Assembly (NCBI GenBank): GCA_030704615.1
Contig: CM060733.1
Coordinates: forward strand, 24,180,001-24,244,000
Direction: 5' to 3'
DNA from: Takakia lepidozioides
Lineage: Eukaryota; Plantae; Bryophyta
Length of the DNA: 64,000 nt
The first letter of the stretch is position 1, and each line of letters begins with the position of its first letter. Shown piece after piece: positions 1 through 53,600 of this stretch. The position numbers were made by a program, and so were the translations under genes. The notes beneath the pieces are model-generated. The model saw nothing but the letters and a program-made list of their open reading frames with translations. It ran no database searches and was not told where the DNA came from.

Positions 1-2650
1 TCACCCTATGGAGGGTGAATGCTATGCCTTGGTGTGGGGAGTATTACACTTTAGGCAGTACCTGTATGGAACCTTTTTGTAATCAGGACTGATCACAAAC
101 CACTGGAGTGGTTGGCAACGGTAAGTGACGCATATGGACGCAGGGGTAGATGGATCATGATGTTACAAGATTTTGAGTTTAAAATTGTTCATAGGGCGGG
201 TGCTAGGCATGCTAACGTAGATGCGCTAAGCAGGTATCCAATGGGACCAGCTGAGGAAACCGAGGAAATCAAGGTATACTCTACTTCTCTATACAGTCAG
301 AAAAGGGAAGGGAGAAAGAGGGATGGAGCCTATCTTCTTAGACTAGAGTGGGATAGGGGTGCCATCAATGCTTCTCTATTTCAATTTAAAGAGGGTAAGA
401 AGGAGTTGAGAGAAGAAGCTCATAGGCAAGTAGGGTATAGCAGTGAAAAGGGGGAAATGATTTGCAAGAGAGGAGTACTATGCATGTGTATGGGGTCTTT
501 GGTATTTCAAGAAGACACTGTTGGGATGTCATTTTTCTTTAGAAACAGATCTGGATCCATATTGGTGGCTATACTCAGAACACCACATAGGCATAGACTT
601 GCTTGGTGACTTTTCATTTGAGTTTGTTCTTGGAATAGATAGATCTTCCACAGGTGGGATGTTGACCAAGGCTCATGGTATATTGAAAGGAGAACTAAAA
701 CCAGGTGTAATGCCAGATAGGGAAGGAAAGAAGGTGACTTTTGCTGCACGGACTTTTGCCACCAAGACCCAAGGAAAGGGCATTGATCAATCAACCCCTG
801 TCAATCTGGTAAGGGAAGGTATTTGGAAAGATGTGGGTGCAGGAAAGAAGGAGGTTCCTGCAATCAGCAACAAAGAAGGGGCAGATCTGATGTCCTCTTG
901 TCCCACCATCCATGTGATTACCCGAGGATCTCTTCTCGTGATCAGGAGCTAAGCAAGGTACAGCCAGCCTGTGAACTTGTGGAAGAACGATCAAACAATG
1001 AAAAGGGAAGCTCACTAGAAACACCATTCCTTCAACACTCTATATACACAGAGACAACAGGAAGAATTTGGGTGACCTCCTCGGCAGAATGCCCAGCTGA
1101 AGACACACATGGGGGTGAGTGTTCCACCAAGACATTTTATTCTTCAGTCAGTGATGGATCACGTTGTTCAAGGCAAGAAACTTCTTCTTGCAACAAGGAT
1201 GTTAAAGGGGACTGGGTGCCATGGACCACACCCACCAAAGCTACTCAGATGTCACTATTACGTGCAGCTGAAAGATGGGGGGAAGACTCTCTCATCAGCT
1301 CTGACAATCATACATCAGCTGTTAAGGAGGAAAGGCAACCTGATGTACTTGATGATGTGGAAGTTATGCATCTCTTATGTTTTGGAGAAGTCAATGACTA
1401 TTTGACAAAGGAAGAAAGCAAGAGAGCCAGCAGGCGGGCAAGGCAGTACTCCTATCTCAAAGGGGAAGTCTACTTTGAGGGAAGGGTAGTTCCACCAAGA
1501 ACGGACAGAGAGGCAATAATCAAAGTGAAGTGCATAAGGCCACTGGCCATTTTGGAATCCGGAGAACACAGAAGAGATATGTCGACGGTATTTCTGGCAT
1601 GACAGAACGAAACTCATCAGGCAAGTACTCAAGGGCTGTGGAGAATGTCAGATGACCAAACAGAACGGAGTGTTACGCTCAGGTAGCTCAAAACTTCACA
1701 GCATTCCAGTTGTGGATCTGTTTTTCAGAGTTGCAATTGACACAGCAGGGCCATTACCCATAACCAACAGGGGCAATCAGTACTTTCTGGTAGCAATAGA
1801 TCACTTCTCAAAATGGATAGAGGCTGCACCAGTGGCAGATCATACAACAGCACTTACTGCCCGCTTTCTAGTGGAAGAAGTCATTAACAGGTATAGCTGC
1901 CCCCACACATTGCTCACTGACAATGGCACGGAGTGGGGAGGTGAGTTTGAAGATGCATGCCGCGAATATGGTATAAAAAGAGAGCATAGCGCTCCCTACT
2001 GGCCTCAGTTTAACGGAATGGTGGAAAGGGTGATTAAGTCCCTCAAGCAGAGCATCACCACCTTGGGAGTTGGAAACGACACTGAGTGGGATCAGAACCT
2101 ATACAAAGCCTTGTTTGGTTACAGAATGGGTGTTCATACTTCAACGGGATTCTCACCTTTTCAAGTGCTGACTGGTAGGATTCCAAGACTTGGGATCGAT
2201 AACAGGTTGCACTTTCTTACAGCAGCAGTAAATTTTGAGGGATCTGTTGCAGAGGTCACACTGATGATGCAGCAGAAAATCCAGTTCCTATCAGAGATAA
2301 AGGCTAAGCTGCGGAAAAATGTGAAGAAAGGGCAGCGTCAGCAGGCAAGGGATTATGAAAGGAGACATCAAGCAGGGCGCAGCTACTGCAAGTTGATAAA
2401 GAACAGCAAGGTGATGATGTTGAGGCCTGGAAAGAGGTCTTCCATGACATCTCCATGGGAGGGACCCTATGACTTTTTGGGGTACAAAGATGCAGGAAAA
2501 ACCACAAGGACAGGGGAAGCTGCACGCATATGCAGGCTAAGAGATGGGGCAAACAAGGAATGGGTAAGAAGTAGGCGGGATTTGAAACCATTCATACCAC
2601 CAGTGGGTGGTCAGCCAGTGAAGGTGGTCAGTGAGGACCCTGACACTTAA
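1..2650 (+). pseudogene. E1 pol 3' part: RNase H, about 1.1 kb unrecognised spacer, frameshifted integrase Zn-binding region, open integrase core (1652-2650); no chromodomain
   Basis: IDTAGP...IDHFSKW...LTDNGTE...NGMVER (DDE) and a WEGPY (GPY/F) motif; frameshifts between ORFs 112, 521, 823 and 1652. Confidence 0.9.
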
Positions 2651-2679
2651 AAAGGGAGACACACTACATATGTAGTGTG
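2649..2679 (+). other. E1 polypurine tract (2649-2659) followed by a perfect 20-bp palindrome CACACTACA-TA-TGTAGTGTG (2660-2679) spanning the 3' LTR start
   Basis: Read directly: AAAAAGGGAGA CACACTACA TA TGTAGTGTG. Confidence 0.9.
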
Positions 2680-2853
2680 AATGCAGGGGAGTGACATTAC
2701 ATTTTGTCTTACCGTTAAGACCCTACATCACTACAACGGGAGTGCCCGTTGTACAACTGCAGGAGGGATATATCCCTGCATACAGGTAATTTCATGGGCA
2801 TACTGTGCTTATGCTTTGCCAGGATAAAAATGGCTAAATCATGACCATGCGTA

Positions 2854-2925
2854 TTTTCATCCGTAGGATGAACGTTTTCATCCGTAGGATGCACGTTTTC
2901 ATCCGTAGGATGCACGTTTTCATCC
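2854..2925. repeat. 21-bp tandem repeat in the E1 LTR (3 units here, 2 in the other LTR)
   Basis: Unit TTTTCATCCGTAGGATG(A/C)ACG, each containing the dyad CATCC-GTA-GGATG. Confidence 0.9.
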
Positions 2926-4212
2926 CAGGTGTTTAACCTAGAAACGCGGGTTGAGGAAAACGAAGAGGAAGATGACGGGCAACTCTTAGCAGCTGCTGCA
3001 AGCAGTGGGGTTGTCAGGGTCGTCTGTTTTTGGGAGGTTGTACCTACGCTATGGGACTCTGCTTGGTTTAGAGAGCAGCATTAAGTGCTTCTGCTTGGTA
3101 TTCTGTGTAAAGGGAAGCGGTGCCGCTTCTCTCGTAGTGATGATCAATTCCTGGAGTAGGAGCATGTAAGAAGAGCGGCGCACCACCGCTGTCGCCATTG
3201 CCTTGAAGAAAACAGTTATGGGCAGATGAGCAAGCAAGGAAAACGGCCAGCTGCCGGAAGCACAAGGAAGTGAGTTGTGGGCACAATCAATGGAGGGGAT
3301 GAGGCATGTGAAGTGCTGGCTGGATGGCAACTCAGGTTATCTGTAATCAAAGCTTATAGCTGCTTTTGTGTCTTCTTTGCTATAGGACCATGTCAATTCT
3401 TAGGGAAGAATTGCACGCATAGAAGGATAGAGTATTTAGTTGGCAAGCCACAGGATGTTCCATAGGATGAAGAGGAGCCATCATGGCATGATAAATACTG
3501 GAATCAAGACAAGGAGAATAGGTTGAAGTGGCTGCTGACAGGCGATGGTGAGGTGCCATCTTGGCAGGCAGATCCACCGCTTCGCTGGAGGATAAAACAG
3601 ATAAGTTCGTAGACTGTTGGCTTCGGTTTTTGGGGGTAGTGACTTAGAAATCGTTTTGGTGTGGATTTAGGACTGGCTCTTGGTAGAGGAGAAGGAGGTA
3701 GAGACATGTGATAGAGGAAAAGGTTTTGGAAATGGAATGGAGACTCTGGACTTCAAACCAGGATAGGGAAAGGATGGATGCACCTGATGTTATAGTGTCA
3801 GTAGGAGAAATGAGTGGGGGGAGAGATTGCTTGTCACTGAATCAGAATGGTCACTGTTTGTCTTCATTCTTGTTCTTTGTTTCAGTGTTATAAACCTGCA
3901 CACAATGCTGCCCTGGGTATTGATACACTGGAACCAATGTAGACCTAGCTTGGCTGATTGAAAACACCAGTGAGGGTTAGTTAGAACTGTTGAAAACAGA
4001 GAAAGGATAATGTGGATGGGGAAGCAATACGGACATTGATTTGGTTTTGGAACTGATTTCCAGTATGGTCTCAGGGTATGAACAACTGAGGTTCACAGTT
4101 GAAGGGAGAAGAGGGCTGTTGGGGTATTTGGTTGAAACTTGTAGAAAGGCTGAGAGCTGTTTGGGCAATGGCTTCTTTTGGAAAAAGGTAGTGTGAAGGG
4201 TTGGACATTGGC

Positions 4213-4214
<2 letters not shown>

Positions 4215-4306
<92 letters not shown>
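4215..4306. repeat. (GA)n microsatellite in the E1 3' LTR; shorter counterpart at 10314-10357
   Basis: Pure GA run of about 46 units, versus about 22 units in the other LTR. Confidence 0.98.
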
Positions 4307-4309
<3 letters not shown>

Positions 4310-5000
4310 ATGAATGGGATGGTTATGCCTTGTGTGACCGAGGATGATTTCAAGGCTGGGTGCACTGGATGCCTAGCTGAGTTGTTCATTGCATTGCATG
4401 GTAGATATGCTGCTGTTGAAGAAGTGAGGAACCTGTAGACCAAGATTAGAGAGAGAGAGAAAAGGATTTGGGAAGGGAGAGAGCTGCTCAGTAAAAGGGG
4501 TTGATGGGGATGGCCAATTTGGGGAGATGAGATGAAGAAAAATGAACCCTGAAAGAGACCAGTGGCCCTGCAGTTCATGGCAGATCTGAGCTGCCTCCCT
4601 CTAAATCTGTGTCACCATTACAAAGGGGGCTTCCGACGTGTCACTGCTCAAGGGAGCTTCACATTAAGGGTCGTGTTCAGCGCTGTCATAGGGCTGGTTG
4701 CATCACAGAAAAGATCATGGCAGCACTGGTGGCGCTGTGATCATAGGGCAAGGCTGTTGTATAAAAGTAGAATCAAGAGCAAGAACAATTCAAAAACTCC
4801 CCATCCATGTCTTCTCTTCCGCTGCGGCGTGGATGAGGATTGCATGAACTCTGATCATGAACGAACTAAGGGAAACCCACAGCCATGTGAAGATGGTTGG
4901 ATCACTAGAGCGCTCCTTCCTTTGCTTTAACTTCAACTGGGGAGGAGTACAGATTGGAATCACCCAGAAGGGGATTCACGCCCCTTCTTTTCACACTACA

Positions 5001-5581
5001 CCACCATCGAATATGGAAAGCTTCACGTTTTCGTCGTCCACACCAATGCGAATGTCCCCATACAATGGAGAAGATGAGCACACTCCTTCAGGAGTATAAG
5101 TCTCTCCGATGGAGTCCACCCACGTCCACTGGCAGCAGTTCCCTTGCAACAGCATAGCAGTGCGCATTCTTCTGCATGGGTGCCCGTCGTAGCTGGGAAA
5201 ATCGGAATCAAGGATGCGCACGAGCCACGGACTCCTCAGACCAAGATCGTCACCCCGCTCGAAGGCGTACTGGCCTGGGAGATACTCAAAAGCGGACAAT
5301 GTTTCCACATTCAAACCAGTATCTTCTGTGTAATCTGTGTACCAGATAACAATGTCTCCCGATGTGGCCGAATACATTGCATAATCGATGCCTCCATAAG
5401 GGCAGTCGTCCCGGTTCCGGAAGCACGGTATCCTTGCAAAGGAGGACCTGAGGACGTCTTTGATGCCGATGACAATGACCTTGCGGACAGCAACGAAGCC
5501 CTTAGATTTTCGAAATGATGAGAAGCGGAAGAGCAGTGCGGGCTCCAATAATGGAGCATCTGGGTCACAAGTACCCACCAA
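5001..5581 (-). pseudogene. Unknown protein, paralogue A; interrupted by E1, with its 3' end at 11880-12016 (+)
   Basis: Aligns with ORF 5934-6398. Joining across the TSD gives an open frame ...VKLSIFDGG-MIEGRDIVVNIN...VEVPLTT*. Start codon not resolved. Confidence 0.65.
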
Positions 5582-5933
5582 TCATCGTGTAATGTGTTCA
5601 TCACGCCAGTGGTGGATGAATCGATACGAGGTTTAGTTTGAAATCTGCCACCGAAGTCCATCCCCCGGATGGAAATTCGGCGCCGCATTTACATCGAAGG
5701 GGGGATGGACTTCGTCGTCTCGAGTGGCTATAGGCCCACCTGGCACTTACTGCCCATAGTTTGCATGGCAGGGAAGGAAACTGAAACGGCTACATTCATG
5801 GATGAGCCAATCTTCATCCGTGCAGGTTCCTGTCGGGGGGAAATTTAAATGTGCCATGGAGTGTTTGTGAGGAATTGCAGCGTTTGCTTGAATTTCTTCC
5901 AGCCACCGCGCTGCTGCCTCCTCCATCCGGGAG

Positions 5934-6398
5934 TTGCTGTCATTGAGCGTACTTCGATACTCTTTTTCAGGGATGCCGTGCCGCCGAAATCCTGCTGACT
6001 ACCCTTATCATGGCCACGATTATGCTATGTTCAAACCAGAATCAGGAGACATCATTGTCTGGCTCTCTGTTTTCACAGACGCTTCTAGAATCAAGCAGGA
6101 GTCTTTGCGCGCAATGGAGTATCTGGAGGGCTATTACCGCTTTGAGCGAGGTGAGGGCGAAATCCCATCTTCACCTTGCGGAACCGACCATCTCACCTCC
6201 GTTGGCTCGTCGTCCTCCCTGTCTGCATCGCTCTCATCCGCTGAATCACATATGAACTTTTGCACCCATCTACCTGTCTCAGCTGTTGCCAACTCTTTCC
6301 TTATCCTTCTGTCCTCCCTAGCCCTCTCCAAAATCTGCTCTACTTTACTGGGATTCTCACATCGTCTAATCGCTGTATTTGCGAGTTTAGCTGCATAA
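5934..6398 (+). CDS. Unknown protein, paralogue B (similarity to A ends near 6160; ends uncertain)
   Basis: VLRYSFSGMPCRRNPADYPYHGHDYAMFKPESGDIIVW...AMEYLEGYYRFERG versus VLRSSFARIPCFRNRDDCPYGGIDYAMYSATSGDIVIW...AFEYLPGQYAFERG in A. Confidence 0.6.
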   Translation: MLSLSVLRYSFSGMPCRRNPADYPYHGHDYAMFKPESGDIIVWLSVFTDASRIKQESLRAMEYLEGYYRFERGEGEIPSSPCGTDHLTSVGSSSSLSASLSSAESHMNFCTHLPVSAVANSFLILLSSLALSKICSTLLGFSHRLIAVFASLAA

Positions 6399-7187
6399 CT
6401 AGGAAGGGAGTAGTCCTTCACTGGGCTCGTCATGAAGTCGGCCCTCGCAAAGAACGGGACATTCTTCCTGGCAGGAAGTGTAGGCCCTACATGTTTCGAC
6501 CCGGATCCTGGAATCCTGCACATAACAATCACCAACGAGACCAATGAGAACCAGAGTCCGGAAATGCGTTTGACAAAAAATCACCCAGAAGGCTTTGCAA
6601 ACTTACAATGTTTGCACTCACTCGTATTGCGGGTTCTCCTCGGCATCATGTCCACTGTCTCTTCCTCCGACTCCGACGAATCCGAGGAGTCCTTGGCTTC
6701 GATGGGAGCCGGCCTTCACATTCCATTGCAGCCCTTCCAGATGGGATCCCCAGACGGATGTGTCCTCCTCGTAGGCAAAGAGGTGCCGGTCGGAAAACCG
6801 CCAAGCCCACATTGAGGCACCTGTTACAATGCCATCCACACATTATGACATGGCCCTTCAGATGTTGCAAATGAAAGCATAACGAGAGTTTGCAGAATAG
6901 CATACAACAAGATTTTGCATACCTGTCCCACAGATGAGGTCGAGCACTGTGCCCTCCACGTCAGTGCATGTCTCCATAATTGTCTGAATGAAGGCAGGGC
7001 TCCGAGTGCGTGAATACCGCAGGGGTTCAGTTGAAGTGAGGCTATGAGGGAGAAGTTCCGTGGGAACGTTGTTGAACATGACGTCGTAATCGATGGGGTC
7101 GCAGTTCGGGTCAACCAACAATCCCTCCTTCCGGAAAGCAAAGGTGGAGTTCTCCTTCACAAAGTAGTATGCATCGAACTGCTTTGT
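6134..7187 (-). pseudogene. 3' part of a spliced beta-class N4/N6 DNA-methyltransferase-like gene; exons 7187-6923, 6820-6622, 6515-6134; 5' part removed by a breakpoint near 7200
   Basis: Spliced product RSPAFIQTIMETCTDVEGTVLDLICGTG|ASMWAWRFSDRHLFAYEED fits motifs X-I-II. Both GT-AG introns (102 and 106 bp) keep the frame. Catalytic motif IV is not in the window. Confidence 0.65.
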
Positions 7188-7199
7188 CTGCATACACAG

Positions 7200-9177
7200 T
7201 GGGCTCTATCTACCTTTTCGTTCTCCTCATATCCTCCCATCTCCTCATCTTTATCAGATTCAGAGCTGTCAGAGTCTGGAGATCCTTCCTCCGTGTCCAC
7301 AAACTCTTCCTCGGGCTTTCTTTCTTCTTCCCACAAACCTAGGTACTGTTCATCTGATGTCAGGGTCAAGACATTTCCTACTGACGTAGTGCTTGCATAC
7401 CTTACTCTGCCCTCATCCCCTCTGTGGTAGGCTATTCTGGTGACTGCAGGCTCATTATAATTTATGGTGTGCAAAGGGAAGTGAGCAAAATCCTTTCCTG
7501 GCCCATAGCGTACACGAATCGTTTCAGCTTCGGTGTCAACTACCGCGCGAAACTTTTTGAGAAAGTCCAAGCCCAAAAGCATGTGATACGTATCCGTGTT
7601 TACCACCATAAGCAATTGGTCAGTTCTCCTACTTTGACCTTGATGTCCTCAAGTCTGCCCATTGCAGTCTCAAGAGCACCTGAGGCTACTCTGTAATTTA
7701 CATCCTTATCAGTAACAACAGATCCCATCAGACCAAGATCCCTGACTGTACTTGCGGATATTACAGAAAGCATGGCACCGGTGTCAATTTGGCCTAATAC
7801 TTGGTAATCTCCCATTGTAATCATTACATGAAGCGCTTTAACCTTACCAGTATAAGCATACGAGATCGTGGGCTCAGCGTGTGCTGAGTACAAAGGCCTT
7901 GGAACATCCCTTACTATTTCTACACTGTGAGTTGTCTCCTTTTGTTGTACCATTGCCCTTTCCACCACTTTGACCAGCCCCTTTAATTTATCTAACTCTC
8001 CGGGCACAGTCATGATTAGGTCCATGGGAGACAAGGATATTCTCCCATTGTAGAAGTGGTTCAGGATTCTGGATTTAGTACCTCCTTCTATGGCAGCTTT
8101 GAAATTGTTCTTTGGGTAGATCTCACTCTTGGTCTTGCTTGGCTGTTCACTGCTCTCACCATTCCTCTCTGGTGACTCTGTAGGTTCAACAGTAGGACTC
8201 TGGACAGGGATACGCGTCCTTGGAAGTCTGACTTCATTGATACTATTTTGTGACATCAGATCTGTCATTTCTGCGAGTACATCATCCTCATCATCATAGA
8301 ACACATCTACAAAGTTAGTTCCAGGAGTTCCCATCATAGTCTGGTCGAGTTTTCTACTGCACTCACTCTCTGTATGCCCTAGTACCTTGCAAAAGTTGCA
8401 TCTCACACCACACATTTCCGTGGAATGCCCAAACCGGTGACATTTGTCACACTTAGCTTGGGTTCTTCCTTCAGGACAATATGTAGCTATGTGACCTTCT
8501 TTATGACAAACGTTACAAAGGCGCACACGAGGAGGTGTTCTAGATCCAGAGCTTTCTCCTATGACTGGTCCCCTATCAAAGTACTTCTGTAGGGTAGTGT
8601 TTAGCTGATCAAGTCTTCTGTCCACAGGGTTGACAAACACAACTGACTCATCTGTATCATCTCCTTCCAATGGCTCTAGAGGTATTTCCCCCAACTTTCC
8701 CAGGCCCCTCTCAATCTCAATGGCTGTCTCAAGTGCTTCCTCTACATCAGAGAAGCGCCTGCCCAGCATTACTCTTGCTATTTCAGGTCTCAAACCTGCT
8801 GCAAATCTACGCCTCTGTTCCAAATCAGATGCCCCACTTCTTATAAACAACCGGTTCAACCTATCAAAGTATGTCTGAACCCTTTGTCTATTTTCCTGTT
8901 TGATGGTATCCATCCTCAGCCTGATTTCTGCCAAGTCAATGACACCAAACTTGGCTGATATGGCTGCCTTGAAATCTTCCCAGTTGCCTGGTCTAGGGTT
9001 TTGTTTACGGTACCATTCATCAGCCTTGGCTCTCAGGTTGAGCCTTGCTACCTTGAAGGTTTTATCCTCATTTAAATCTCTAACATTTGCCTCCATCTGA
9101 ATCCTTTCCAGCCAGTCATTCACATCCTCACTATTCCTACCATGATAAGGCACATCTATGCTAGTTGGACTGGTCAT
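7200..9177 (-). pseudogene. E1 gag-protease (ORF 9177-7600, frameshifting into 7615-about 7200)
   Basis: Capsid-like N-terminus; three CCHC knuckles (CNVCHKEGHIATYC, CDKCHRFGHSTEMC, CNFCKVLGHTESEC); protease IDTGA...LLGLDFL. Confidence 0.92.
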
Positions 9178-9249
9178 TCTTCTACTCTCTAGTCTGAGTT
9201 CAAACTGGTTTTAACACCTAATTCTGATTCTAATTTTTCTGAAACACCC

Positions 9250-9576
9250 TTAATGCTGACCTCTATACCACTCCCACTGTCCATTTCGCAACATCTCTAC
9301 TCTACCTCCCCATGTCACTTCTCGTGCCATGGTATTTATCTTCTCCCACCTTCCTAACTCTCTTATCCAAAGTACTATGGTTGTTCTTCCACCAGCATGT
9401 ATCACTCTAAGACATAAATCACCATCAGCTATTCTCCAAGCAGGGTTGAAGAAGTACAAACAAGGGTTTGCGTAGGCATTTGGTGAGCGTCGGCTGAAGC
9501 AAATCAGCACATCTCCAATGCTTGGTTCATCAGGAATCAATGTATGGTCTCTGCCTGCCATCAAACCATCCAACAC
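9250..9576 (-). CDS. Short extra ORF between the PBS and gag of E1, function unknown
   Basis: Sense ORF of 108 codons (first ATG 9561), Trp/Arg-rich, ending about 70 bp before the gag ATG. Confidence 0.45.
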   Translation of the reverse strand: MLDGLMAGRDHTLIPDEPSIGDVLICFSRRSPNAYANPCLYFFNPAWRIADGDLCLRVIHAGGRTTIVLWIRELGRWEKINTMAREVTWGGRVEMLRNGQWEWYRGQH

Positions 9577-9616
9577 AAATCAAGATCCCTAGCTAGTAGA
9601 TATCACAATTTAACGA

Positions 9617-9629
9617 GGCTCTGATACCA
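9617..9629 (-). other. E1 primer-binding site (tRNA-iMet)
   Basis: TGGTATCAGAGCC directly after ...CCCCTTCTTT, with no CA in between. Confidence 0.92.
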
Positions 9630-10310
9630 AAAGAAGGGGCGTGAATCCCCTTCTGGGTGATTCCAATCTGTACTCCTCCCCAGTTGAAGTTAAAGCAAAG
9701 GAAGGAGCGCTCTAGTGATCCAACCATCTTCACATGGCTGTGGGTTTCCCTTAGTTCGTTCATGATCAGAGTTCATGCAATCCTCATCCACGCCGCAGCG
9801 GAAGAGAAGACATGGATGGGGAGTTTTTGAATTGTTCTTGCTCTTGATTCTACTTTTATACAACAGCCTTGCCCTATGATCACAGCGCCACCAGTGCTGC
9901 CATGATCTTTTCTGTGATGCAACCAGCCCTATGACAGCGCTGAACACGACCCTTAATGTGAAGCTCCCTTGAGCAGTGACACGTCGGAAGCCCCCTTTGT
10001 AATGGTGACACAGATTTAGAGGGAGGCAGCTCAGATCTGCCATGAACTGCAGGGCCACTGGTCTCTTTCAGGGTTCATGTTTTCTTCATCTCATCTCCCC
10101 AAATTGGCCATCCCCATCAACCCCTTTTACTGAGCAGCTCTCTCCCTTCCCAAATCCTTTTCTCTCTCTCTCTAATCTTGGTCTACAGGTTCCTCACTTC
10201 TTCAACAGCAGCATATCTACCATGCAATGCAATGAACAACTCAGCTAGGCATCCAGTGCACCCAGCCTTGAAATCATCCTCGGTCACACAAGGCATAACC
10301 ATCCATTCAT

Positions 10311-10359
<49 letters not shown>

Positions 10360-11879
10360 GCCAATGTCCAACCCTTCACACTACCTTTTTCCAAAAGAAG
10401 CCATTGCCCAAACAGCTCTCAGCCTTTCTACAAGTTTCAACCAAATACCCCAACAGCCCTCTTTTCCCTTCAACTGTGAACCTCAGTTGTTCATACCCTG
10501 AGACCATACTGGAAATCAGTTCCAAAACCAAATCAATGTCCGTATTGCTTCCCCATCCACATTATCCTTTCTCTGTTTTCAACAGTTCTAACTAACCCTC
10601 ACTGGTGTTCTCAATCAGCCAAGCTAGGTCTACATTGGTTCCAGTGTATCAATACCCAGGGCAGCATTGTGTGCAGGTTTATAACACTGAAACAAAGAAC
10701 AAGAATGAAGACAAACAGTGACCATTCTGATTCAGTGACAAGCAATCTCTCCCCCCACTCATTTCTCCTACTGACACTATAACATCAGGTGCATCCATCC
10801 TTTCCCTATCCTGGTTTGAAGTCCAGAGTCTCCATTCCATTTCCAAAACCTTTTCCTCTATCACATGTCTCTACCTCCTTCTCCTCTACCAAGAGCCAGT
10901 CCTAAATCCACACCAAAACGATTTCTAAGTCACTACCCCCAAAAACCGAAGCCAACAGTCTACGAACTTATCTGTTTTATCCTCCAGCGAAGCGGTGGAT
11001 CTGCCTGCCAAGATGGCACCTCACCATCGCCTGTCAGCAGCCACTTCAACCTATTCTCCTTGTCTTGATTCCAGTATTTATCATGCCATGATGGCTCCTC
11101 TTCATCCTATGGAACATCCTGTGGCTTGCCAACTAAATACTCTATCCTTCTATGCGTGCAATTCTTCCCTAAGAATTGACATGGTCCTATAGCAAGAAGA
11201 CACAAAAGCAGCTATAAGCTTTGATTACAGATAACCTGAGTTGCCATCCAGCCAGCACTTCACATGCCTCATCCCCTCCATTGATTGTGCCCACAACTCA
11301 CTTCCTTGTGCTTCCGGCAGCTGGCCGTTTTCCTTGCTTGCTCATCTGCCCATAACTGTTTTCTTCAAGGCAATGGCGACAGCGGTGGTGCGCCGCTCTT
11401 CTTACATGCTCCTACTCCAGGAATTGATCATCACTACGAGAGAAGCGGCACCGCTTCCCTTTACGCAGAATACCAAGCAGAAGCACTTAATGCTGCTCTC
11501 TAAACCAAGCAGAGTCCCATAGCGTAGGTACAACCTCCCAAAAACAGACGACCCTGACAACCCCACTGCTCGCAGCAGCTGCTAAGAGTTGCCCGTCATC
11601 TTCCTCTTCGTTTTCCTCAACCCGCGTTTCTAGGTTAAACACCTGGGATGAAAACGTGCATCCTACGGATGAAAACGTTCATCCTACGGATGAAAATACG
11701 CATGGTCATGACTTAGCCATTTTTATCTTGGTAAAGCATAAGCACAGTATGCCCATGAAATTACCTGTATGCAGGGATATATCCCTCCTGCAGTTGTACA
11801 ACGGGCACTCCCGTTGTAGTGATGCAGGGTCTTAACGGTAAGACAAAATGTAATGTCACTCCCCTGCATTCACACTACA
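9630..11879 (-). repeat. E1 5' LTR (lacks the terminal 10 bp present on the 3' LTR)
   Basis: Starts TGTAGTGTGA at 11879; differs from the 3' LTR by a few substitutions, microsatellite length and one 21-bp repeat unit. Confidence 0.95.
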
Positions 11880-12517
11880 GTGGTATGATTGAAGGGCGGG
11901 ACATTGTGGTGAACATCAACAGGGGCAGTACAACGGCTGCAATCCAGTTTACCTGGAGGAGCCCGATGACTCATGAGCTAGTTCTCAGAGCAGTCGAAGT
12001 CCCATTGACAACGTGACTTGTATTCAGAAGGCACAGGGCTAAAGATTTGTTTGCACAATCAGCACAGTAGACGTGCTTCAAATGCAATTCATGTGGATCA
12101 ATAAAAACCCCATTGTGCCCTCTTTTTGTTCTATTCTGTATCCATCGTTCCCAAAATGCGTCATTCCTCATTTCGTTTGGGATTGGGAGTGTGGGTGGAT
12201 TTTGCAAGTGGCTGGTAGGCTGAAATGGGCTGCCATTGTACAGAGCAGTACCACCCTACCATTCGCGAAACATTGCCTTTCAATATGTAATTCTAAAAAA
12301 CATTGTCGAACCTCCTTCATCGGGAGGTCCTTCTCCCCCTATGACCGTGACACCCTAAACCCTATTCCCGCGGACACTCATTTCCGGAAAATAGTCCTGC
12401 TCATGTTTTTTTTGACACTTACGACTCTGTTCATGGCTCATGCCGCTCATGGCTCATGGCTCATGAAATAGCAGCCCCCCTGAGATCTTGGGTATTGACT
12501 CCTATGAGCTTGGCCTC

Positions 12518-14030
12518 TCATGTCTTGTGAACTGCCACTAGCCATATCCACTGCCACCATCCCAAGCAGTGTGGACATAACCAATCTCCATCAGGAACCC
12601 TCTCAAGAGGTGGTGTCAAGCATCCCATGTGCCAACCTCGTGAGCATTGATCACACACCAACATAGTGGCGGCACCATGAGCATGCCCACATAGCATGCA
12701 ACGCAATCCTGCAGGTACCACTGCAAGGTTGGGATCTATCCTCCCATCCACATGTGGAAGGTGACATGGCGCACAATTACACACATGGTCCTTCCATACC
12801 ATTCCATCTCGACCCTCTAGAATCAACACTCCTGAAGGCAACACCTCCTTGACCCTTAGAATCACACGTCCTGCTGTGACATCCAAGGTCGTAGGCGCTG
12901 TCTGCTGCAGATACACATAGTCCCCAGGGTGGAAACGCCGAACACCTGGCCGATATCCCCCTCTACGTATAGTGACATACCTCAATGTGTCTCGGTGTTG
13001 GGCAATAGCAAGATTCTCAAAAGCCATAGGCATGACTCTCTTGAACAACTTTGCCCACTGGGCACATGCTTGTGTCCACACATCCGGATCATCAAGGTTG
13101 AGGACTACTGCAGCCTCCCTACGAATAGACGCAGGCAAATCTGACTCTCGGCCAAAAAGAAGGAAATATGGTGAGAAGGAGGCAAGTGATGCTTGCTTGC
13201 TAAACCTGTAGCCCATGGCTAGCCAAGGTACCTGAAGATCCCAATCTCCTAGGTGTCCTTTTTGCAAGCCATACTTGCGCAAACCCCTCTTCACCGTCTG
13301 CACCACTCTCTCTGCCAAGCCATCGGCCTCAGGATGATCCCGAGAAGTGGTACGGTGGTCTATCAAGGCTTTATCACACAAAGCCTGAAACTCCCCTAAG
13401 AACTCTCTCCCTTGGTCCGTGAGTACCTCAGCTGGAGCACCAAATCGGCTAAGCACACGATCCAAGAATGCATATGCAACCCCCTCACTAGCCTTGTCAG
13501 GCAATGGAACCAACTCAATCCACTTGGAGAATTGCTCCACCATCACCAACACATATCTGTGCTGACGCATCGTTAGTGGCAAAGGCCCTGCGAAGTCAAG
13601 ACTTCACCTATAGCCCAATCCCATGATGGGTAAATGATGCAACTGTGGTGTAGGGGTGTTGAATGAAGCACGCACCCTGTCACACACCATGCACCTAGCC
13701 CCGAACCGTTGCACCTCTGTATGCATACCACGCCACCAATACTGCCCCTGCAGTAAACTATGAGTGCGTCGCACTCCAAAATGCCCAACTCCTCATGGGC
13801 ATGCCGCACTAACCGTGCACGCGGTGTTGAGTGAGGCACGATCCTCACCCGACCATCCTCCCACACTTGAAGCAGGTGTATCCCCTCCCACTTGAACCTC
13901 TTGGCTCGTTGTAGGATCCGATCCATCTCCTTGGTAGTCACACTAGCTGCCGTGTCTCCAGTGCAGAGGTAGTCCAACACAACCGAATCCTCATATATAT
14001 CTCTGGCACCACCTGGCTCATCACTAGCCT
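12518..14030 (-). pseudogene. E2 integrase with C-terminal PHD finger (12566-12700)
   Basis: HEELGH..C..C Zn-binding region (frameshifted); LTDQGREF...DGLAER; CMLC...CDQCSRGWHMGC...WLCPHC. Confidence 0.92.
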
Positions 14031-14729
14031 CAGGGTCCTCAGACACTCTGTCTACAGTCATCCCTGTTGTAGGTCCAACCTGACCTCCCGATGCCAAGAT
14101 ACACAAAAAAGGCAGATGCATGCCATCCCGGCACCATCTCCTTGTCCGTCTCACCATGCCACCGAGCTCCAGTGTCATCCTGCTAGCTTGTGCATGGATT
14201 GCGATTCAATCCATCCGCATCCCTATTGACCAAACCCGGTCGATGCACAACCTGAACATGTTTCTCATGCTCCTCCACCGTAGCATGAGAGACAAAGCAA
14301 TTCCTGTAAGCCTCAGGAACTACCGTATACGTCGTCTCTCTCCTCTAGTGACAATAGGTCCAATGTCAGGCTCCCAATTGCCCTTCGTAACTACAACCTT
14401 AAGTCCAGCAGACTTGGAGGTAGAGGACGCGTCCCGTGGTTGCTATGCCGCAACCTCTTGAGCAGTACTCCCTGCCTGCTCAGTCAATGAGAAGGCCTCA
14501 TCTTGCCCCATCATCTCATCCTTGAGGACCTCCTCAACCCGAGAAGAATCCCCAACCTCATCCATCACAGCCGCATTGGCTGCCAACTCCCTCTGAACCT
14601 CGAGCACCTCCCACATGTGCCATGGATGTCTACACCCTGTGGTCCTCACTGGCTCGCCCCCACTCACTGCCTATACCGTCTCGGTAGGCAGAGAGACCGT
14701 CAAGGGAAGTGCACTCCGCACTCTTCGTT

Positions 14730-15695
14730 GCTCAGCCATAGCCAAGCTGATAATCCAGGTCAAGCAATTTAGATCCATTGCTCCCCAACACCTGACGACG
14801 TGATGCCTCAGAAAGAGAAGGCACCACCGTGGTCCCAGTGGAAAAACCCATAGCCCGCTCTTGCTCGTCGGCATTAGGCTCCAGTAATTGCTACAACTGA
14901 TCATCCCACAGGAGGCCAGGTCCATTATCCCGGAAAGCATGCGATCCTGGGAAGCTGAGCAGTGTAGGTAATGCTGCTCGTGGTTGACCCACCTTGTTGA
15001 CCACTGCCAAAGGCGAACGGTCCTCGTGTCTCACATGCTAAGACTGCCTCCCTGTGTCCAAAATGCTATCCACTGTGAGATGTGCTGGCCGCTGCACCCC
15101 ATCAAATGCACGCTTGAGCAGTGCGGGTGGCATCAAGTTAGTCCACCATAGCCGTGGACGATGAGCCCGTGACCCCACTGTAGCTGCATCTAAGAACATT
15201 GTTGACCCAAGCCACGACCGGACTTGATGCACACTGGCCATCATCCTGGCCCAAGAATCGCCCATCAGTGGCACATTCTCCAAGATGTATGCTGGAGATA
15301 CAGCTTGATGAAGCTGTAAGTGGCGCAAAACCCGCACCATCTCCCAAAAGAGACCCGACCTCGAGTCTCGCAATCCATTGTCATGCCCGGCTGATGAATG
15401 CCCTTGGCAGGGCCAACCTGCCACTACCAGATCAATGGAGCCAACCCGCTCCAAATCCTGCACCCCCAGCAATGAAATGTCTGCTGGCAAGGCCTGCTGA
15501 TATCCACGAACTGCAGACACTGGCAACAACTCAGGGTACCGGTGCACCAACTGAGCAACATGACGAAGTGAAACGCGTCGTGCAGTTTCATCCCTCTCCA
15601 CATACAGGTAACGCCAAACTCGTACACCTACCTGTAACACAACAGCCAATCCGGTGCTGATACCGCCAAACAAGTCCAGAAGACAAATGCCTTCA
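14730..15695 (-). pseudogene. DNMT3-like DNA (cytosine-5) methyltransferase domain in the E2 polyprotein
   Basis: Motif I LDLFGGI, II YVERD, IV AGWPCQGHS, VI ILENVP, VIII AHRPRLWWTN, IX ERAMGF, X-like VLG-AMDLN. Stops and frameshifts after motif VIII. Confidence 0.92.
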
Positions 15696-16267
15696 TCCGG
15701 ATACTGCCACACAATAGGTGTGGTGTCCAATGGAGGCAATTGAGGTGGTCCTGGTGCAATCCCCGCACTCTCCTCCTCTCCTGTCGGTACAAAAGCCTCC
15801 ACCCAGACTTGTTGCACCCGTCGATCAGCATCCCGCTGCAAATCCTTGCTCGAGTCTGAGCAACCATGGTAGGCAACTCCGCCATACCATACATGTCATC
15901 CTGCTCTCCCGGAGGTGGCACATCCTCTGAATGAGCGTTGCCCTCAAGCAACTCTCCAGGCCAACTCACTGCCGATGTGAATGCTGTTAGTGTCGGCATC
16001 TTGTCTCGCTGGGCAACCGCAACTCCTCCTATGAACATCACAGGGAGCTGCACATGCCGGCCCTCCGTTGACTGCCATGCAGGCCTATAGGAAGCTGACT
16101 CCTCCCAAAAATCCAGGGTGAAGCCCATGGGGTACAATACTGCCCCACCAACCATGACATCGTACGAGACCGCGTCTGTCACAATGGCCTTGGCTCGCAT
16201 CACTGAGCCATCTGTAGGGTGATCCGGCCGTCGTCTGATAGCCAACTCACGCCGTGTCATGCCCCGA

Positions 16268-17159
16268 TGTTGAGCGGCTTTTACTCACCCATCCCTTCGC
16301 TATCCGAGGTGGAAACTCCAAAATAGAAGAGTTGGATATTTCTAAGCACTCAACCCGCTCAGTGCAATCAGTCATGACCTACAGCTAGTGAATCATGGTT
16401 GTGCTTCCCAATTGTATTCCTTCTTGCCTTCATGTTATCAATTCACCTTATCTGATACTAAAGCATCAGATTGCTTCAATATCTACTTAATTCCAATTAA
16501 TCATGCATTCATTTCACAGCTTCACCCATGTCTCTCTACACAGCGTGCTTGTATTGAATAAGTATCAGATTACGATTTATCAGGTACTAGGCCAATGTCA
16601 AGTGACACTAATCCACCCTACAGTATCACTACAGTTCTGCATGAAGTAAAGCATCTACTGTTCATCTCTCCTCCTACTCCGTGCTCTCGTTCTTGCTCTC
16701 CCCTTGATCTCCTCTCCTCCCTCACCATGAAGTGCTCCCCGTGAAGTGTCATTCTTTCCGTTGCCGCTCTCCTTATCTGCCCCCCAAGCTGTTGTAACCA
16801 CCTAACTAATTAACCGTTATCTCCGAAGTATCACGTTCCTTCTGCAGATATCGTTCCCTCACAGTCATTCCCTGCCATTGATAACTGTTCCCCATGTACT
16901 GTGACAGGCTGTGTCAAGCTGTGCCGAGCTGTGACTGGCTGTGACGAGCTGTGGCGGCCGTGCGAAGCTGTGTCAGGCTGTGTCGGCTGTGATTGGCTGT
17001 GACGGGCTGTGTCGGGCTGTGTAACCCCCCCCCCCCCCCCCCCCCCAAAAGTCTGTTGCTGTCACCCCTAAGGCTCCTGTTGGTCTCAGTCTGTGTAAAA
17101 AATTAAGGGTACCCCACAGATTCCGTAAAAGCGTCTAAGTCCCAAGCAGCCCTCTAACA
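16268..17159 (-). repeat. 3' LTR (892 bp) of element E3, inserted in the E2 protease
   Basis: Minus strand: PPT GAGAGGGGGAGGGG-TAAA, then TGTTAGAG...CTCAACA; E2 protease resumes at 16267. Contains a C22 run (17025-17046) and a GCTGTG array. Confidence 0.8.
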
Positions 17160-21397: not shown

Positions 21398-21409
21398 TGA
21401 TCCTATGGA

Positions 21410-21580
21410 CTGTGTAACCCCAATAGGCTGTGTTGAGCTGTGACAGGCTGTGTCATGCTGTGGTAAGCTGTGATAGGCTCTGACATGCTGTGGTAGGTTG
21501 TGATAGGCTGTGACACGCTGTGGTGGGCTGTGATAGGCTGTGTCACACTGTGATGGGCTGTGATAGGCTGTGTCACGCCT
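21410..21580. repeat. 10-bp-period GCTGTG array, same motif as 16899-17023 in the E3 LTR
   Basis: Units such as TGATAGGCTG, TGTCATGCTG, TGGTGGGCTG. Confidence 0.85.
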
Positions 21581-21659
21581 GTACTGCCCGCCCTGGTCAT
21601 ATACGCTCGGCTTAGCGACAAGTGCTCCATACTCCGTTGGTACTCCATACGCCTTTCAT

Positions 21660-40380: not shown

Positions 40381-40458
40381 GTAGTCTCTCTCTGCAAGAG
40401 AGCCAATAAATAAAATTTAAAATTTAAACTTGTGACAAAAAATTCTATGTTATGAGCA

Positions 40459-42340
40459 TGTGATGCCCCAAACTTTCCTCATCAAAGATTTACCTTATTC
40501 ATCCAAAACGGCGATACTCATTCGTAGTATAATTTTTTGGCTTAAAATACCGTTGAACCGTTACAAAGATATCATAGCCAGGGTTAGTTATGGCTAGTGG
40601 CTGCATCACGGCCGTTCAATAGATCTAGGGTTTTGATGTGGCGCCGCGGGCTCAGCCTGACACGCCTCGCCACGCGTCAGGAAGACATGCAGCTAGGGTT
40701 TGTATAAAGTGGCGGCCTGACCTTGTGTCAGGCAGCTGATGTACTTTGGTGTATGTAGATGTGGAAAGTTGTCTGAATGTGATACGTGTGTATGATTTTC
40801 TGTCAGTTCGCTCGTTGAGATCCTCCTCTCGCGTGGGTGCACGCTCCTCTTGTTCTCCCCCCGTTGTTTTGAAGAGCACTTGAGATGATAGGCAGATATT
40901 CGTCCTGCTTCTTTTATGGTGGAGGTGCGCCGGGTGTTTTTCTTGATCATTTAAACGGCGTGCTTAGGTTAAGATTAAGAGCTCCTCGGTGTCTTATAAA
41001 GATGGCGGCAGCCCGCCACCCCGCAGTGTATTTGCTTAGTGTTGAGTTCTCTCCATGCTTGCTCGTTAATCTTGCTTCTGTTTCAGACTATGGCGTCTCA
41101 TGTGTCGATTACTAGAAGTGTTGTTAATCGTGAAGGAGAGCGCTTGCTTGATCTAGTCATTTCACTTTCTGCTTCATCTGCTAACCCTCCTTCTTCCAAC
41201 ACGTCGCCTGACACTCTTGCCTTGCCGGTGTTGCTGATGCGTGGAGATATTGCTGTTGATTCAGGTCTTGTTGTCTGCTTGAATTCACCTAGTCCTAGTA
41301 AAGAAGCTAATCTAGCTGCAGCCGAAGCTTGGTCGCCAAGCACTGCGAGGTCCGGTTCATTGGATAGTTGTGATCCAGAGTATTACAATTTTGATATCTA
41401 TCATGATCCAGGGCCCGATTTCGTCTGTCCCAGAGAGCAGGAGCGAGAATTTGAGATGGACATAGCTCGTTCACATGAGTATGATGCTACAGTGTGTAAC
41501 TTACTTTCTGTTGATCAATTCTGGTTTGACAAGATAGAGATTGCGGTGCAACGGGACGTATTCTACTTCACTGAGAGTCGAGTTTCGGCGCCCAGATGAC
41601 CTGACTCTGACCCAGCGGTGATCGCTGCGGACTCTCTCTCTGCGACAAGGCAAGTTGTGGCTTCGAGGAACGCTGCTTGTCTGTCTCATGATGTGGTCAA
41701 GTCCCATTTCTTGAATCATCAGGCTCTGTCGTGGAAAGAACTGGGGCTTCATCTTCCTTTATCTACTGAACGTGTTCACCGTGATTGGCTGGTTTCCTCC
41801 TTTGTCGAGCCATCTTGGCTGTCGTTAGCTCTCCGAGGTACGGGCTCTCTCGTTCTACGTCTTCTTCGTTTTCATCACGAGCCCAGCAAGGGTCTGCCAC
41901 CGTCAATCGACCTGCTTCAAGGACTGTCGTCGGATAGTCTGTTTGGCCGAGCTTCCAACATTGTCATTTTGCCAGGGACTTTATTTGACGATCAACGGCT
42001 TGTCAGACCTGAGATGCTTGAAAACCTTGATCGCTTTCCTGTTGATTCAGTGCTATCTCGCATTTGGGAGAAGGAGAACTCTACCTATGTGTCCTTAGTA
42101 CATATGAGGATAACGTGCCAACAATATATCTGCAGTGTTTCTCATGTTAGCGGCATTGTCTGTGCATATTTGCACGATTCTATCACTTCCGACCTGTTCG
42201 ATGAAGTCCGTCAATAGTTAGCATTGATAACGTCCATCTTTCTTCTCGCCGCTAGTGTCGACCGATCCCAAGAATTGTTTCCCAGCTGGACATACGAGCA
42301 TGACATTGAACAACGGTCTGTTTGTAACAGAACTGGGTAA
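40459..42340 (+). mobile_element. E4-family 5' portion: 5' LTR (40459-40916), PBS (from 40917), extra ORF; truncated against a hAT fragment
   Basis: LTR starts TGTGATGCCCC; about 24 differences over 458 bp (manual count) from the reverse complement of 52414-52871. Followed directly by TGGTGGAGGTGCG (tRNA-Ala-like PBS). Confidence 0.88.
41090..42217 (+). pseudogene. Extra 5' ORF of E4 (about 375 codons, one in-frame TGA at 41597), function unknown
   Basis: ORFs 41039-41599 and 41618-42217 share a frame; no gag or pol motifs. Confidence 0.6.
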
Positions 42341-50608: not shown

Positions 50609-53600
50609 ATCAGCCAGAAAAATTTGTTTACCCTCTGGGTATTCCCTGGCATTCTTTTTCATGTTTGAGTCAGAAAGTATGAAGGCTATATGAACTGTTT
50701 CCCGTACTGAATTTTCTCATAATGTCCTCAGTTGTGCATCATTTGTCATTACAATTATTCTGAGTGAGTGTCAGCTAGAAGCTAACTTCAAGCAGTATGG
50801 GCAGCTCGTGAAACTTCAAGAACCAAGCAGCATGACAAGCTTAACAGCCATTGAAGTTATCTAGGATCACCCATTGCATCCATATCTTCCAGATCAGTGA
50901 ATGTCAAGGCTTGCGGAGATCCGTTCCATCTATTGCCTCTACAGAATGGATCATTTCAGCCATCACAATGCAACAAATTCTCTGGTCGATTCTGCAGTGG
51001 TTTTGTGGGTCACAGTGCAGTGCCAGTCCTATTTAGACTTCCCAGGAAATCATTGCAGAATGATCATTGGCCACTGTACTGGTCCACCTACTGACTGTTG
51101 CACTCCAAATTTGGCCAGATGGTCCCGGTCCAACATAAATGTATCTGGGGTAAAATGTCAATGATCAGTTAAGCATTTGCTTGAGAAAATGTTGCTTGTG
51201 TTCTCTTGGCGAAGGACGTTTCATCTGACACTGCTAAACATGAGTTTGATGGACTCCAATGTATTTTGGTGAACATCAAGCCTTAGGCCCAGTTGCTCAA
51301 AAGCATGCTTCCCGATCCTCTCTTCCTGATCCTCTCTTCTTCCTCTCTTCTGAGGGCTGTAAGGTTGAATTATGCAGTCCAGTTTCTCAAAATCATGCCT
51401 GCACCACAGAAGGGACGTCTTTTCCTGATCTCATTTGCTTCAATTCCCTGTTTCTCATACTAACGACGAAAGAGCATGTACTCGATCCCTTAATAGTAGT
51501 ACTGAGATGTCATGAATGGGTGCGGAGTGCACAATGTGAAGATGCAATCTCCACATCTTGGGCCAGTGTTAGATTATACAATGTAGTCAACCATCCATGG
51601 AGACCAGCAGAGACAGGACCACAAGCGAAAGGAAGGATGATCACAAGACCAGAGAGACCTTGAAAGAGGAGACAAGGACATGAAGGATAACAATAGGTCA
51701 TCCATTGTCTGTCCGGAAGATCAATTTTGGACGCCCTCCAGATTCATTGACAATTTTGTTTTCTGGATGATGTGTGAGAAAAACTAGTAAAAGTACAAAA
51801 TTCTCCCCTTCCCTTGGGCAGTGTCCCTTGAGCCTTGTGCTGGGTGCCTCATGGTGAGGTTACTATGAAAGACGGTGTTTTCTCCTCTCACTATAATTAA
51901 GGGGCCTGATTTGTGAGTGATCACTCCCAGGTATATTACCCTTTCTCAAAAAGAAGGAAGAAGCAAGATTCTTGCCCAAGCAAGTGTAACTTATGGTGTC
52001 ATTACACCCTTGAAGGGCCAAAGTCGAAACAATATAAGAAATTAGCTACAACCCCACTCACTATTGTGCTTTAATGGAGAGGAAGCGAGACTCTCCACCA
52101 CGCACAAATCGAACCGAACGGGAAGGAATGTATCTCTAGGATGATGATTGTAGTATTTTCATTTGCAGCTATCAAAACAAGAAAATTTCTCTATAAGGAC
52201 GCTGATGAGATAAAATATCCAATTGGATAACTTAGAGTCTGTGATGACCACACCTTCACAAACCACACCTACTAGGTACGCACGGAAATCATGTCAGGGG
52301 CACTAAAATGAAACGTCTTTTTTTTCTTTCTGTCTTTTCAAATTCCCTGCTAGTGACGACTCGCTCGTTCGAAATCACTCAATAAACTAAGTTATAGTAG
52401 GCTTGTGAAGCCTTAAAAGAAGCAGGACGAATATCTGCCTATCCTCACAAGTGCTCTTCAAAACAACGGGGGGAGAACAAGAGGAGTGTGCATGCACGCG
52501 AGAGGAGGATCTCAACGAGAGAACTGACAGAAAATCATACACACGTATCGCATTCAGACAGCTTTCCACATCTACATACACCGGAGTACATCAGCTGCTT
52601 GACACAAGGTCAGGCCGCCACTTTGTACAAACCCTAGCTGCATGCTTTCCTGACGCGTGGCGAGGCGTGTCAAGCTGAGCCCGCAGCGCCACATCAAAAC
52701 CCTAGATCTATTGAACGGCCACAATGCAGCCACCAGCCATAACTAACCCTGGCTATGATATCTTTGTAACGGTTCAACGGTATTTTAAGCCAAAAATTTA
52801 TACTACGAATGAGTATCGTCATTTTGGATGAATAAGGTAAATCTGTGATGAGGAAAGTTTGGGGCATCACATCTGTGAAGCCTACCCCCCACGAAGAATC
52901 CTGAGCTCCGCAAAGCACAATATAAGAAATAATAAGTAAATGTTTGGGATAAAATCACCCTCCACTGTTGGGTGAAAAAACCTACCAAAGGAAAACATGG
53001 CACCTGCAAATTAGGCCGAGGACAAAACCTTTGGCTAGGAAAACCGTGCAGGGAGTACACGTGATGACATATTATAGGTCTACAAATGCATCAAGAGTTA
53101 GAACGAAAGGCCAGAAAGGCCGAAAAAACCATAAAGTGCCAAATCCGCAAGCTACACTAAGCCGCCAAAGAAGCCAATCTGAAGAAGATCAAGACATCAT
53201 CCCACCGTACGTCCCTCCACATTGATGCACGTAAGATCAAAGACCAGCTTGGAATGCACCAGATCCGTGAGAGAAACATGTCCATCACGCGCATGGACAT
53301 TGAACCCCTGTGGAAGAAGGAGAGCACGTCGCCCACGTAAAAGCTCATAGATCAAGTATGGACCGTCGATCTTAAGCTTAGATTTGTAAGCATGCTTACC
53401 ATGCTGCAACCGAATGCACACGGTCTGTCCCATTTTAAAAAGGTTAGAATACTTGACACGCTTGTTAAAATTACGGGTTTGGGTGAGTTGAGCCTTACCA
53501 ATGTTCGTCTTGGCATCATGGATGGACACCACATGCCAAGCATGAAGATCCTCAACAAAGATCTCAAGATCAACTGGCTCAGCTACAGTAGAGATATAAG

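Follow-up and report, generated by a model that had tools for sequence, protein, structure and literature searches.

A Ty3/gypsy lineage represented in Takakia whose 5′ long terminal repeat lacks a terminal CA and which probably integrates through joined cDNA ends

Introduction

In the accepted view, the integration substrate of long terminal repeat (LTR) elements and of retroviruses is linear complementary DNA (cDNA), and 2-LTR circles are by-products or at best a reserve route (PMC4372172). Among Ty3/gypsy elements of plants, the nearest described short clades from non-seed plants are Phygy and Selgy (PMC6317226), which are compared here by description. Phygy elements carry a primer-binding site (PBS) for tRNA-Trp and a 4-bp target-site duplication (TSD) of the form NCGN, while Selgy elements have a tRNA-Ala PBS and measure 4.4–6.7 kb; non-chromoviruses are said in that survey not to use tRNA-Met (PMC6317226). 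Here, we describe an element in a 64,000-nucleotide stretch of the Takakia lepidozioides genome (GCA_030704615.1, contig CM060733.1, positions 24,180,001 to 24,244,000, forward strand), referred to below as the window. By its domains this is a Ty3/gypsy element, and it breaks the canonical end rule: LTRs that both run from TG to CA are found neither in it nor in the relatives checked. The non-canonical end structure is real and lineage-wide. A literature search covering titles and abstract openings, with subscription journals and repeat-database reports outside its coverage, returned no description of it.

Results

The genomic layout of the element is LTR-PBS-gag-pol-PPT-X-TA-LTR-X, where PPT is the polypurine tract and X the short segment that follows it; the X-like segment after the 3′ LTR is called the tail (coordinates in Table 1). 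X, the TA spacer and the LTR start, TGTAGTGTG, make up a perfect 20-nt palindrome directly after the PPT. The 3′ LTR closes in CCCCTTCTTT-T at 4991 and is followed by a second copy of X, CACACTACA, and then by CCAC, which recurs outside position 11879. The 5′ LTR also ends in CCCCTTCTTT, and passes at 9630/9629 on the minus strand straight into the PBS, with no CA in between. The PBS, TGGTATCAGAGCC, is of a type that we take to be tRNA-iMet. The TA spacer is missing from both integrated ends. A first-pass annotation of this DNA had described the CA-less 5′ junction, the T and repeated segment at the end of the 3′ LTR, the TA-centred palindrome after the PPT and the 4-bp CCAC duplication, and all of these were recovered here.

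Five runs contain the window stretch, and copies of the element's own family were judged from contigs and their depth. At least four records (depth 79–1023) cross the LTR/PBS junction without an inserted tail. Several other own-family records start exactly at 9629, and a listed loose end consists of the same tail and a new flank, representing a second insertion. Contig depth over 2000–4190 is very high, which points to a high-copy family.

Distant relatives were obtained in a scan with an integrase alignment, from which we took the best 80 of 486 loci (43–47% integrase identity), all of them short-read contigs of repeats. PPT-X-TA-TG stands right after integrase in 76 of these 80 loci, the other four being cut off or interrupted, and the integrase frame stops within about 50 nt of the PPT. 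X is 7 nt long in the relatives, mostly GGTTACA, GGTGACA or GGCTACA; the spacer is TA in 75 and TG in one, and the palindrome core ACA-TA-TG is kept in 76/80. In the element and its relatives, the PPT lies 9–11 nt from the TG of the LTR. Full PBS junctions, counted in a scan whose pattern contained no TTT requirement, have CA before the PBS in 0/20 cases, and a pyrimidine tract precedes all 20. The first-pass proposal depended on the repeat after the PPT being conserved and on the tail being absent from the 5′ LTR of most copies, and both points came out in its favor.

The 3′ LTR ends of the relatives were located by a profile trained solely on the bases preceding the PBS. Among the 45 loci long enough, 36 lead into a tail (with CA or a one-base variant), three into a PBS, and six ends were not located. 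A motif-free BLAST comparison, tried on 46 loci, yielded a boundary in 17, and in 15 of these the boundary and the tail end were no more than 10 nt apart. Intact relatives have direct LTRs and a 4-bp TSD: where both flanks are present, the duplication is exact in five of seven, matches at three of four positions in one and is lacking in one. The exact TSDs, with that of the window, are CCAC, CACG, GTAG, ATGG, CTAG and ATTG. As a control, a gypsy element at 57085–61303 of the same window (gag-pol; 666-bp LTRs 97.6% identical; pol cut short; no matching TSD) is canonical, with CA at both LTR ends and a CA-CT-PBS junction.

Further searches for relatives added little. Viral contigs returned no relatives to a single-protein query and two partial ones to an alignment query, L081 with the PPT palindrome and L082 with the CA-less PBS junction. 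A search of genome contigs gave matches at 26–35% identity only, which were left out of the analysis, and a representative search with cluster look-up gave no name for the lineage.

Where does the tail come from? In the relatives, X mirrors the LTR start imperfectly, so the two possible templates, X and the inverted LTR start, can be told apart there. Before tails were counted, we excluded four of the 80 rows without a junction and 31 too short for the LTR end, then the six ends not located, the three ending in a PBS and three duplicates of the same insertion (L025, L065, L038), leaving 33 independent tails. Twenty-four are identical to the X of their own element and two to the inverted LTR start; by closeness, 29 are nearer X, two tie and two are nearer the inverted LTR start. 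An X of GGTGACA is paired with a GGTGACA tail in 6/6 cases and such a tail occurs in 0/27 others, the six elements sitting on four branches of the integrase tree. Between families, X differs in both length and sequence (9 nt, CACACTACA, versus 7 nt, GGTTACA), and the tail follows.

The junction itself carries a second mark. Extra bases of untemplated appearance are present at 12/33 tail junctions, as against 0/18 distinct PBS junctions (T-run test, p=0.005): the T-run measures 3–5 before the PBS at these 18 junctions and 4–10 before the tail, and A or C precedes three tails. Within single elements, extra bases occur in 5/10, always on the tail side, compared with 6/119 control homopolymer runs. 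A tail that matches its own X, together with the extra junction bases, suggests that the tail is likely rebuilt in each cycle by joining of cDNA ends. The first-pass annotation had read the extra T of the window copy as a retained tRNA 3′ A; this fits, and within a T-run it is indistinguishable from an added T.

A subterminal signal also distinguishes the ends. Within a purine-rich stretch, GG is found at positions 13–21 of the left end in 30/33 elements and of the right end in 31/33, as against 0/33 for the inner half-site on the PPT side, and the window copy is alike. Permuted copies, which the first-pass annotation had proposed to look for, did not turn up: no clear case was seen among 72 PPT-X matches. 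Two PPT-X matches without TA-TG proved to be one contig end and one distant chance match, and all 11 candidate matches to a joined form were minus-strand readings of the PPT junction.

Table 1. Parts of the element in the window, with the evidence for each
Feature	Positions	Strand	Evidence
RNase H, C-terminal part	55..336	+	Pfam RT_RNaseH E 3e-5, just under cut-off; tblastx to relative L071; reverse transcriptase lies before the window
Integrase frame: DDE core, GPY/F-type motif	1538..2650	+	Pfam rve E 3e-13, Integrase_H2C2 E 1e-4; open reading frames
PPT	2649..2659	+	Sequence; same position in 76/80 relatives
X, CACACTACA, internal copy of right-hand attachment tip	2660..2668	+	Identical to 4992–5000; covaries with tail in relatives
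TA spacer of palindrome	2669..2670	+	TA in 75/76 relatives, TG in 1
3′ LTR, TG start, pyrimidine-tract end	2671..4991	+	GGGG 2686–2689, CCCC 4981–4984, T-run
Tail, second X copy, supplies terminal CA	4992..5000	+	Identical to X; on 3′ LTR only
TSD CCAC, right copy	5001..5004	+	Sequence; 4-bp TSD in 5/7 relatives with both flanks
Right flank, non-element DNA, brought in by inversion	5005..7200 (approximate end)	.	No tblastx similarity to internal region of relative below 7460
gag (capsid, zinc knuckles) and aspartic protease	7200..9210	-	Pfam Retrotrans_gag E 3e-7, Asp_protease_2 E 4e-6
PBS TGGTATCAGAGCC	9617..9629	-	Abuts 5′ LTR, no CA between
5′ LTR, TG start at 11879, without terminal X/CA	9630..11879	-	Ends CCCCTTCTTT at 9630, straight into TGGTATCAGAGCC
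TSD CCAC, left copy	11880..11883	-	Sequence outside 11879

The window copy is rearranged. Its LTRs are inverted (plus strand, 2671–4991, versus minus strand, 11879–9630), an orientation that the first-pass annotation had not stated; RNase H and integrase lie on the plus strand and gag-protease on the minus strand, with ~2.2 kb of non-element DNA (5005 to ~7200) in between. We read this as one young Ty3/gypsy insertion that an inversion, whether genuine or produced in assembly, has split, because the LTRs are near-identical (8 mismatches in 2250 aligned positions), the coding halves are complementary and CCAC stands on both sides. The inversion would cover at least 7.2 kb, its first break preceding the window and its second lying near 7200, and the LTRs form a 2.3-kb inverted repeat; the visible break is more than 2 kb from either junction. 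A reading frame in the two flanks stays open for another 43 codons when read through the empty site, which lends slight support to a single insertion, and a homolog search with this frame, aimed at confirming the empty site, gave no matches.

The domain set recognized by Pfam is gag, protease, RNase H and, last, integrase, colinear with relative L071, with reverse transcriptase outside the window. Pol is frameshifted upstream of integrase, and the integrase frame terminates at the PPT with no chromodomain detected by Pfam at its C-terminus; the gag-protease reading is broken by a stop or frameshift near 7600 and truncated by the inversion. A second, shifted RNase H-like piece (461–952, plus strand; tblastx E 1e-6) lies between RNase H and integrase, which suggests that this copy has undergone an internal duplication or an insertion. 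The pyrimidine tract at 4981–4991 is roughly complementary to the PPT at 2649–2659, likewise in relatives; the unique 5′ region of the LTR and the PPT might pair in the RNA, drawing the two priming sites together.

Several neighboring features were noted. Within the right flank are two paralogous frames of opposite orientation and 44% identity (5249–5491, minus; 5922–6155, plus), neither with a Pfam match, the minus-strand frame also being without database homologs. Another frame without a Pfam match (6861–7205, minus) has a motif that, by eye, we take to resemble the C-terminal part of an N6/N4 DNA methyltransferase. A decayed gypsy element at 12518–15895 (minus) has an integrase with a PHD finger (E 3e-10) and, upstream, a frame for a C5 DNA methyltransferase (E 1e-12); the element studied here seems to have gone into its 3′ side, about 600 bp in. 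Elsewhere in the window, a pair of 462-bp inverted repeats (40458–40919 and 52411–52872; 95% identity, about 11.5 kb apart) are possibly transposon ends, and arrays of a 10-bp GCTGTG-type unit occupy 16888–17021 and 21407–21586.

Discussion

During reverse transcription, the right end of the cDNA is set by the primer junction and the left end by the PPT cut. The linear cDNA of this element would therefore begin with X-TA-LTR and stop at the final LTR base ahead of the PBS, leaving a right end without CA. With the cDNA ends so fixed, X can reach the right end solely by joining or copying of the left end. The right attachment (att) tip is stored after the PPT and not where U5 ends, and we think it probable that the cDNA ends are joined head to tail and that integrase cuts the joint. 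The right cDNA end, often with a few added bases, would be joined to X at the left end, giving a 2-LTR circle or a head-to-tail multimer. The joint, LTR-end-X-TA-LTR-start, would be a palindrome with the purine/GG subterminal signal in both halves, and a staggered cut by integrase after each CA (CA^TA, on both strands) would leave two CA-3′ ends with 2-nt 5′ overhangs, whose strand transfer would generate the 4-bp TSD. The internal PPT-X-TA-LTR palindrome would be spared, owing to the lack of the purine/GG signal on the PPT side; this would also explain why permuted insertions were not seen.

Which activity would do the joining? The element's own reverse transcriptase (RT), jumping end to end, is a tentative choice, favored because of the added bases and because the RT of Tf1 has clamp and template-independent activity (PMC3035444). 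Host end-joining is a possible but doubtful candidate, and integrase an improbable one. That integrase could open such a joint has precedent, since the enzymes of HIV-1 (human immunodeficiency virus type 1) and spumavirus cut 2-LTR junctions to yield CA-3′ ends (PMC4372172). On balance we also favor the broader claim that a whole plant Ty3/gypsy lineage uses the 2-LTR junction as its obligatory integration substrate, with an att site that is made by end joining and opened by one staggered cut.

Joining of cDNA ends followed by cutting of the palindrome is what the first-pass annotation had proposed. The layout, the match between tail and X, and the junction bases support this; the joint and its cleavage we infer from integrated products only. 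A number of observations weigh against the proposal. No integrated LTR-X-TA-LTR junction was found, and retroviral 2-LTR circles are a back-up rather than the main substrate (PMC4372172). Four of 33 tails are not nearer X than the inverted LTR start, and two of three elements with an X of GGCTACA have a GGTTACA tail; such mismatches could come from a later mutation or from a contig that is chimeric. The Fisher value (9e-7) overstates independence, because the loci are related: the GGTGACA elements, several of which share an LTR start, may have fewer than four origins, and possible recombinants reduce the independence of the tail and X counts further. The discriminating test rests on relatives, since X in the element's own family inverts the LTR start perfectly. 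Assembly error readily affects the length of a T-run, but not the insertions of A and C (3/33). One relative with 90% identical LTRs (L025) has no TSD. Finally, three loci (L001, L043, L080) pass from the 3′ LTR straight into a PBS with no tail. These may be chimeric contigs or tandem elements sharing an LTR, an arrangement that is common in plants (PMC11899658).

How else could X come to stand at the right end? If the cDNA stays linear throughout, RT would add X by switching to a minus-strand copy of it that is either detached or internal, such as the 11-nt fragment that integrase would trim from the long left end, and integrase would then process two separate ends. This accounts equally well for a tail that equals X and for the extra junction bases, it is in keeping with RT clamp activity, which requires just two paired bases (PMC3035444), and it agrees with the integrated junction not having been seen. 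We nevertheless regard it as unlikely, as RT would have to enter a free or internal template precisely where the PPT meets X in almost every event, the join in the element's own family offers no base pairing (T faces C), and the strict 2-nt TA between CA and TG (75/76) is the prediction of a single staggered cut. A very improbable alternative derives the tail from the 3′ LTR or the primer by an RNA route, either through read-through RNA or with the copied 3′ end of the tRNA, TGGTATCA, acting as the att end, and ascribes the match with X to selection by integrase. The tail plus T of a related family, TGGTTACA, does resemble the start of the PBS, with CA at an equal offset. However, the tail varies along with X while the PBS does not; the window tail, T-CACACTACA, is unlike the PBS, which removes the idea of the tail as a copy of the tRNA end; and selection for att symmetry would favor the inverted LTR start, which is exact in only 2/33 tails.

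That last figure also bears on whether the tail is an ordinary terminal inverted repeat, copied from the LTR start by fold-back or strand switch, with X a bystander. The tail of the window copy is likewise a perfect inverse of the LTR start, and two of 33 relatives are better fitted this way, but 29/33 tails are nearer X and both exceptions differ at the first base only, within an expanded T-run; this explanation is largely refuted and, in our estimate, highly improbable. There is next to no chance that the element is canonical and its 5′ LTR lost 9–10 bp once, or that its ends are an artefact of inversion or assembly. The window copy is indeed rearranged, with pol broken, yet high-depth contigs of its own family have the same tail-less junction, CA is present at the PBS junction in 0/20 relatives, and the distance of the inversion break from each junction exceeds 2 kb, so that a one-off deletion is refuted.

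If joining and cutting of the cDNA ends is correct, this lineage, whose linear cDNA cannot carry the right att end, would be a natural exception to the linear-cDNA rule. The circle-precursor model was abandoned for retroviruses; the old question would become directly testable. It would also tie the integrases of retroelements to IS3-type transposases and the way these cleave junctions.

Among known systems, the order of repeats resembles that of the split-direct-repeat elements PAT, TOC1 and Ngaro, whose layout is A1-body-B1-A2-B2, with A corresponding here to the LTR and B to X. This is the layout expected for an element opened from a circle. In PAT, TOC1 and Ngaro the enzyme is a tyrosine recombinase, the B repeats are long and a TSD is as a rule lacking, whereas the present element has an rve DDE integrase, tRNA priming, a PPT, a B of 7–9 nt and a 4-bp TSD. 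The chemistry proposed here resembles retroviral 2-LTR cleavage, as described for HIV-1 and spumavirus, where a DDE integrase cuts a palindromic LTR-LTR junction to give CA-3′ ends able to integrate (PMC4372172). Retroviruses differ in that both att ends are present in the linear cDNA from the outset and the circle serves as a back-up (PMC4372172); in the element described here one att end is missing from the linear product, which would make joining obligatory, and the join is placed 9 (or 7) nt in from the right end rather than centrally in the palindrome.

Abutted ends also serve the copy-out paste-in insertion sequences (IS) of the IS3, IS30, IS21 and IS256 families, in which a DDE enzyme acts on ends with a CA-3′ terminus, separated by a spacer of 1–2 bp (IS2), and the abutted ends make up a reactive junction that is cut to 3′-OH ends (PMC3299598). 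IS circles, however, arise from chromosomal DNA through a figure-eight with both ends present in the element (PMC3299598), whereas the intermediate here would come from reverse transcription and its spacer is encoded in the element. Sireviruses share a conserved PPT, an attachment site, a C-rich integrase signal near the LTR's 3′ end and an inverted repeat at the PPT/3′ LTR junction; they differ in belonging to the copia group, in having the repeat arm upstream of the PPT and in an AT/TG attachment site (PMC2829016). The passages of PMC2829016 that deal with this region describe no tail confined to the 3′ LTR.

By its parts, the element is closest to plant non-chromodomain Ty3/gypsy elements, with the order gag-protease-(RT)-RNase H-integrase, a DDE integrase, PBS, PPT, a 4-bp TSD and, before the inversion, direct LTRs. 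It has no chromodomain, and so does not fall among the chromoviruses. Assignment to Phygy is at odds with the Met-type PBS and with TSDs that are not NCGN in five of six cases; assignment to Selgy, again with the PBS and with the size of the relatives, about 7.5–8.5 kb as calculated from LTR and junction coordinates. Compared with both clades, it has a 5′ LTR without a terminal CA and a right tip stored after the PPT. The survey of these clades required TG/CA termini (PMC6317226), so such elements could be missed or mis-bounded there, and we suggest that finders needing TG...CA on both LTRs may have the same blind spot for this high-copy lineage.

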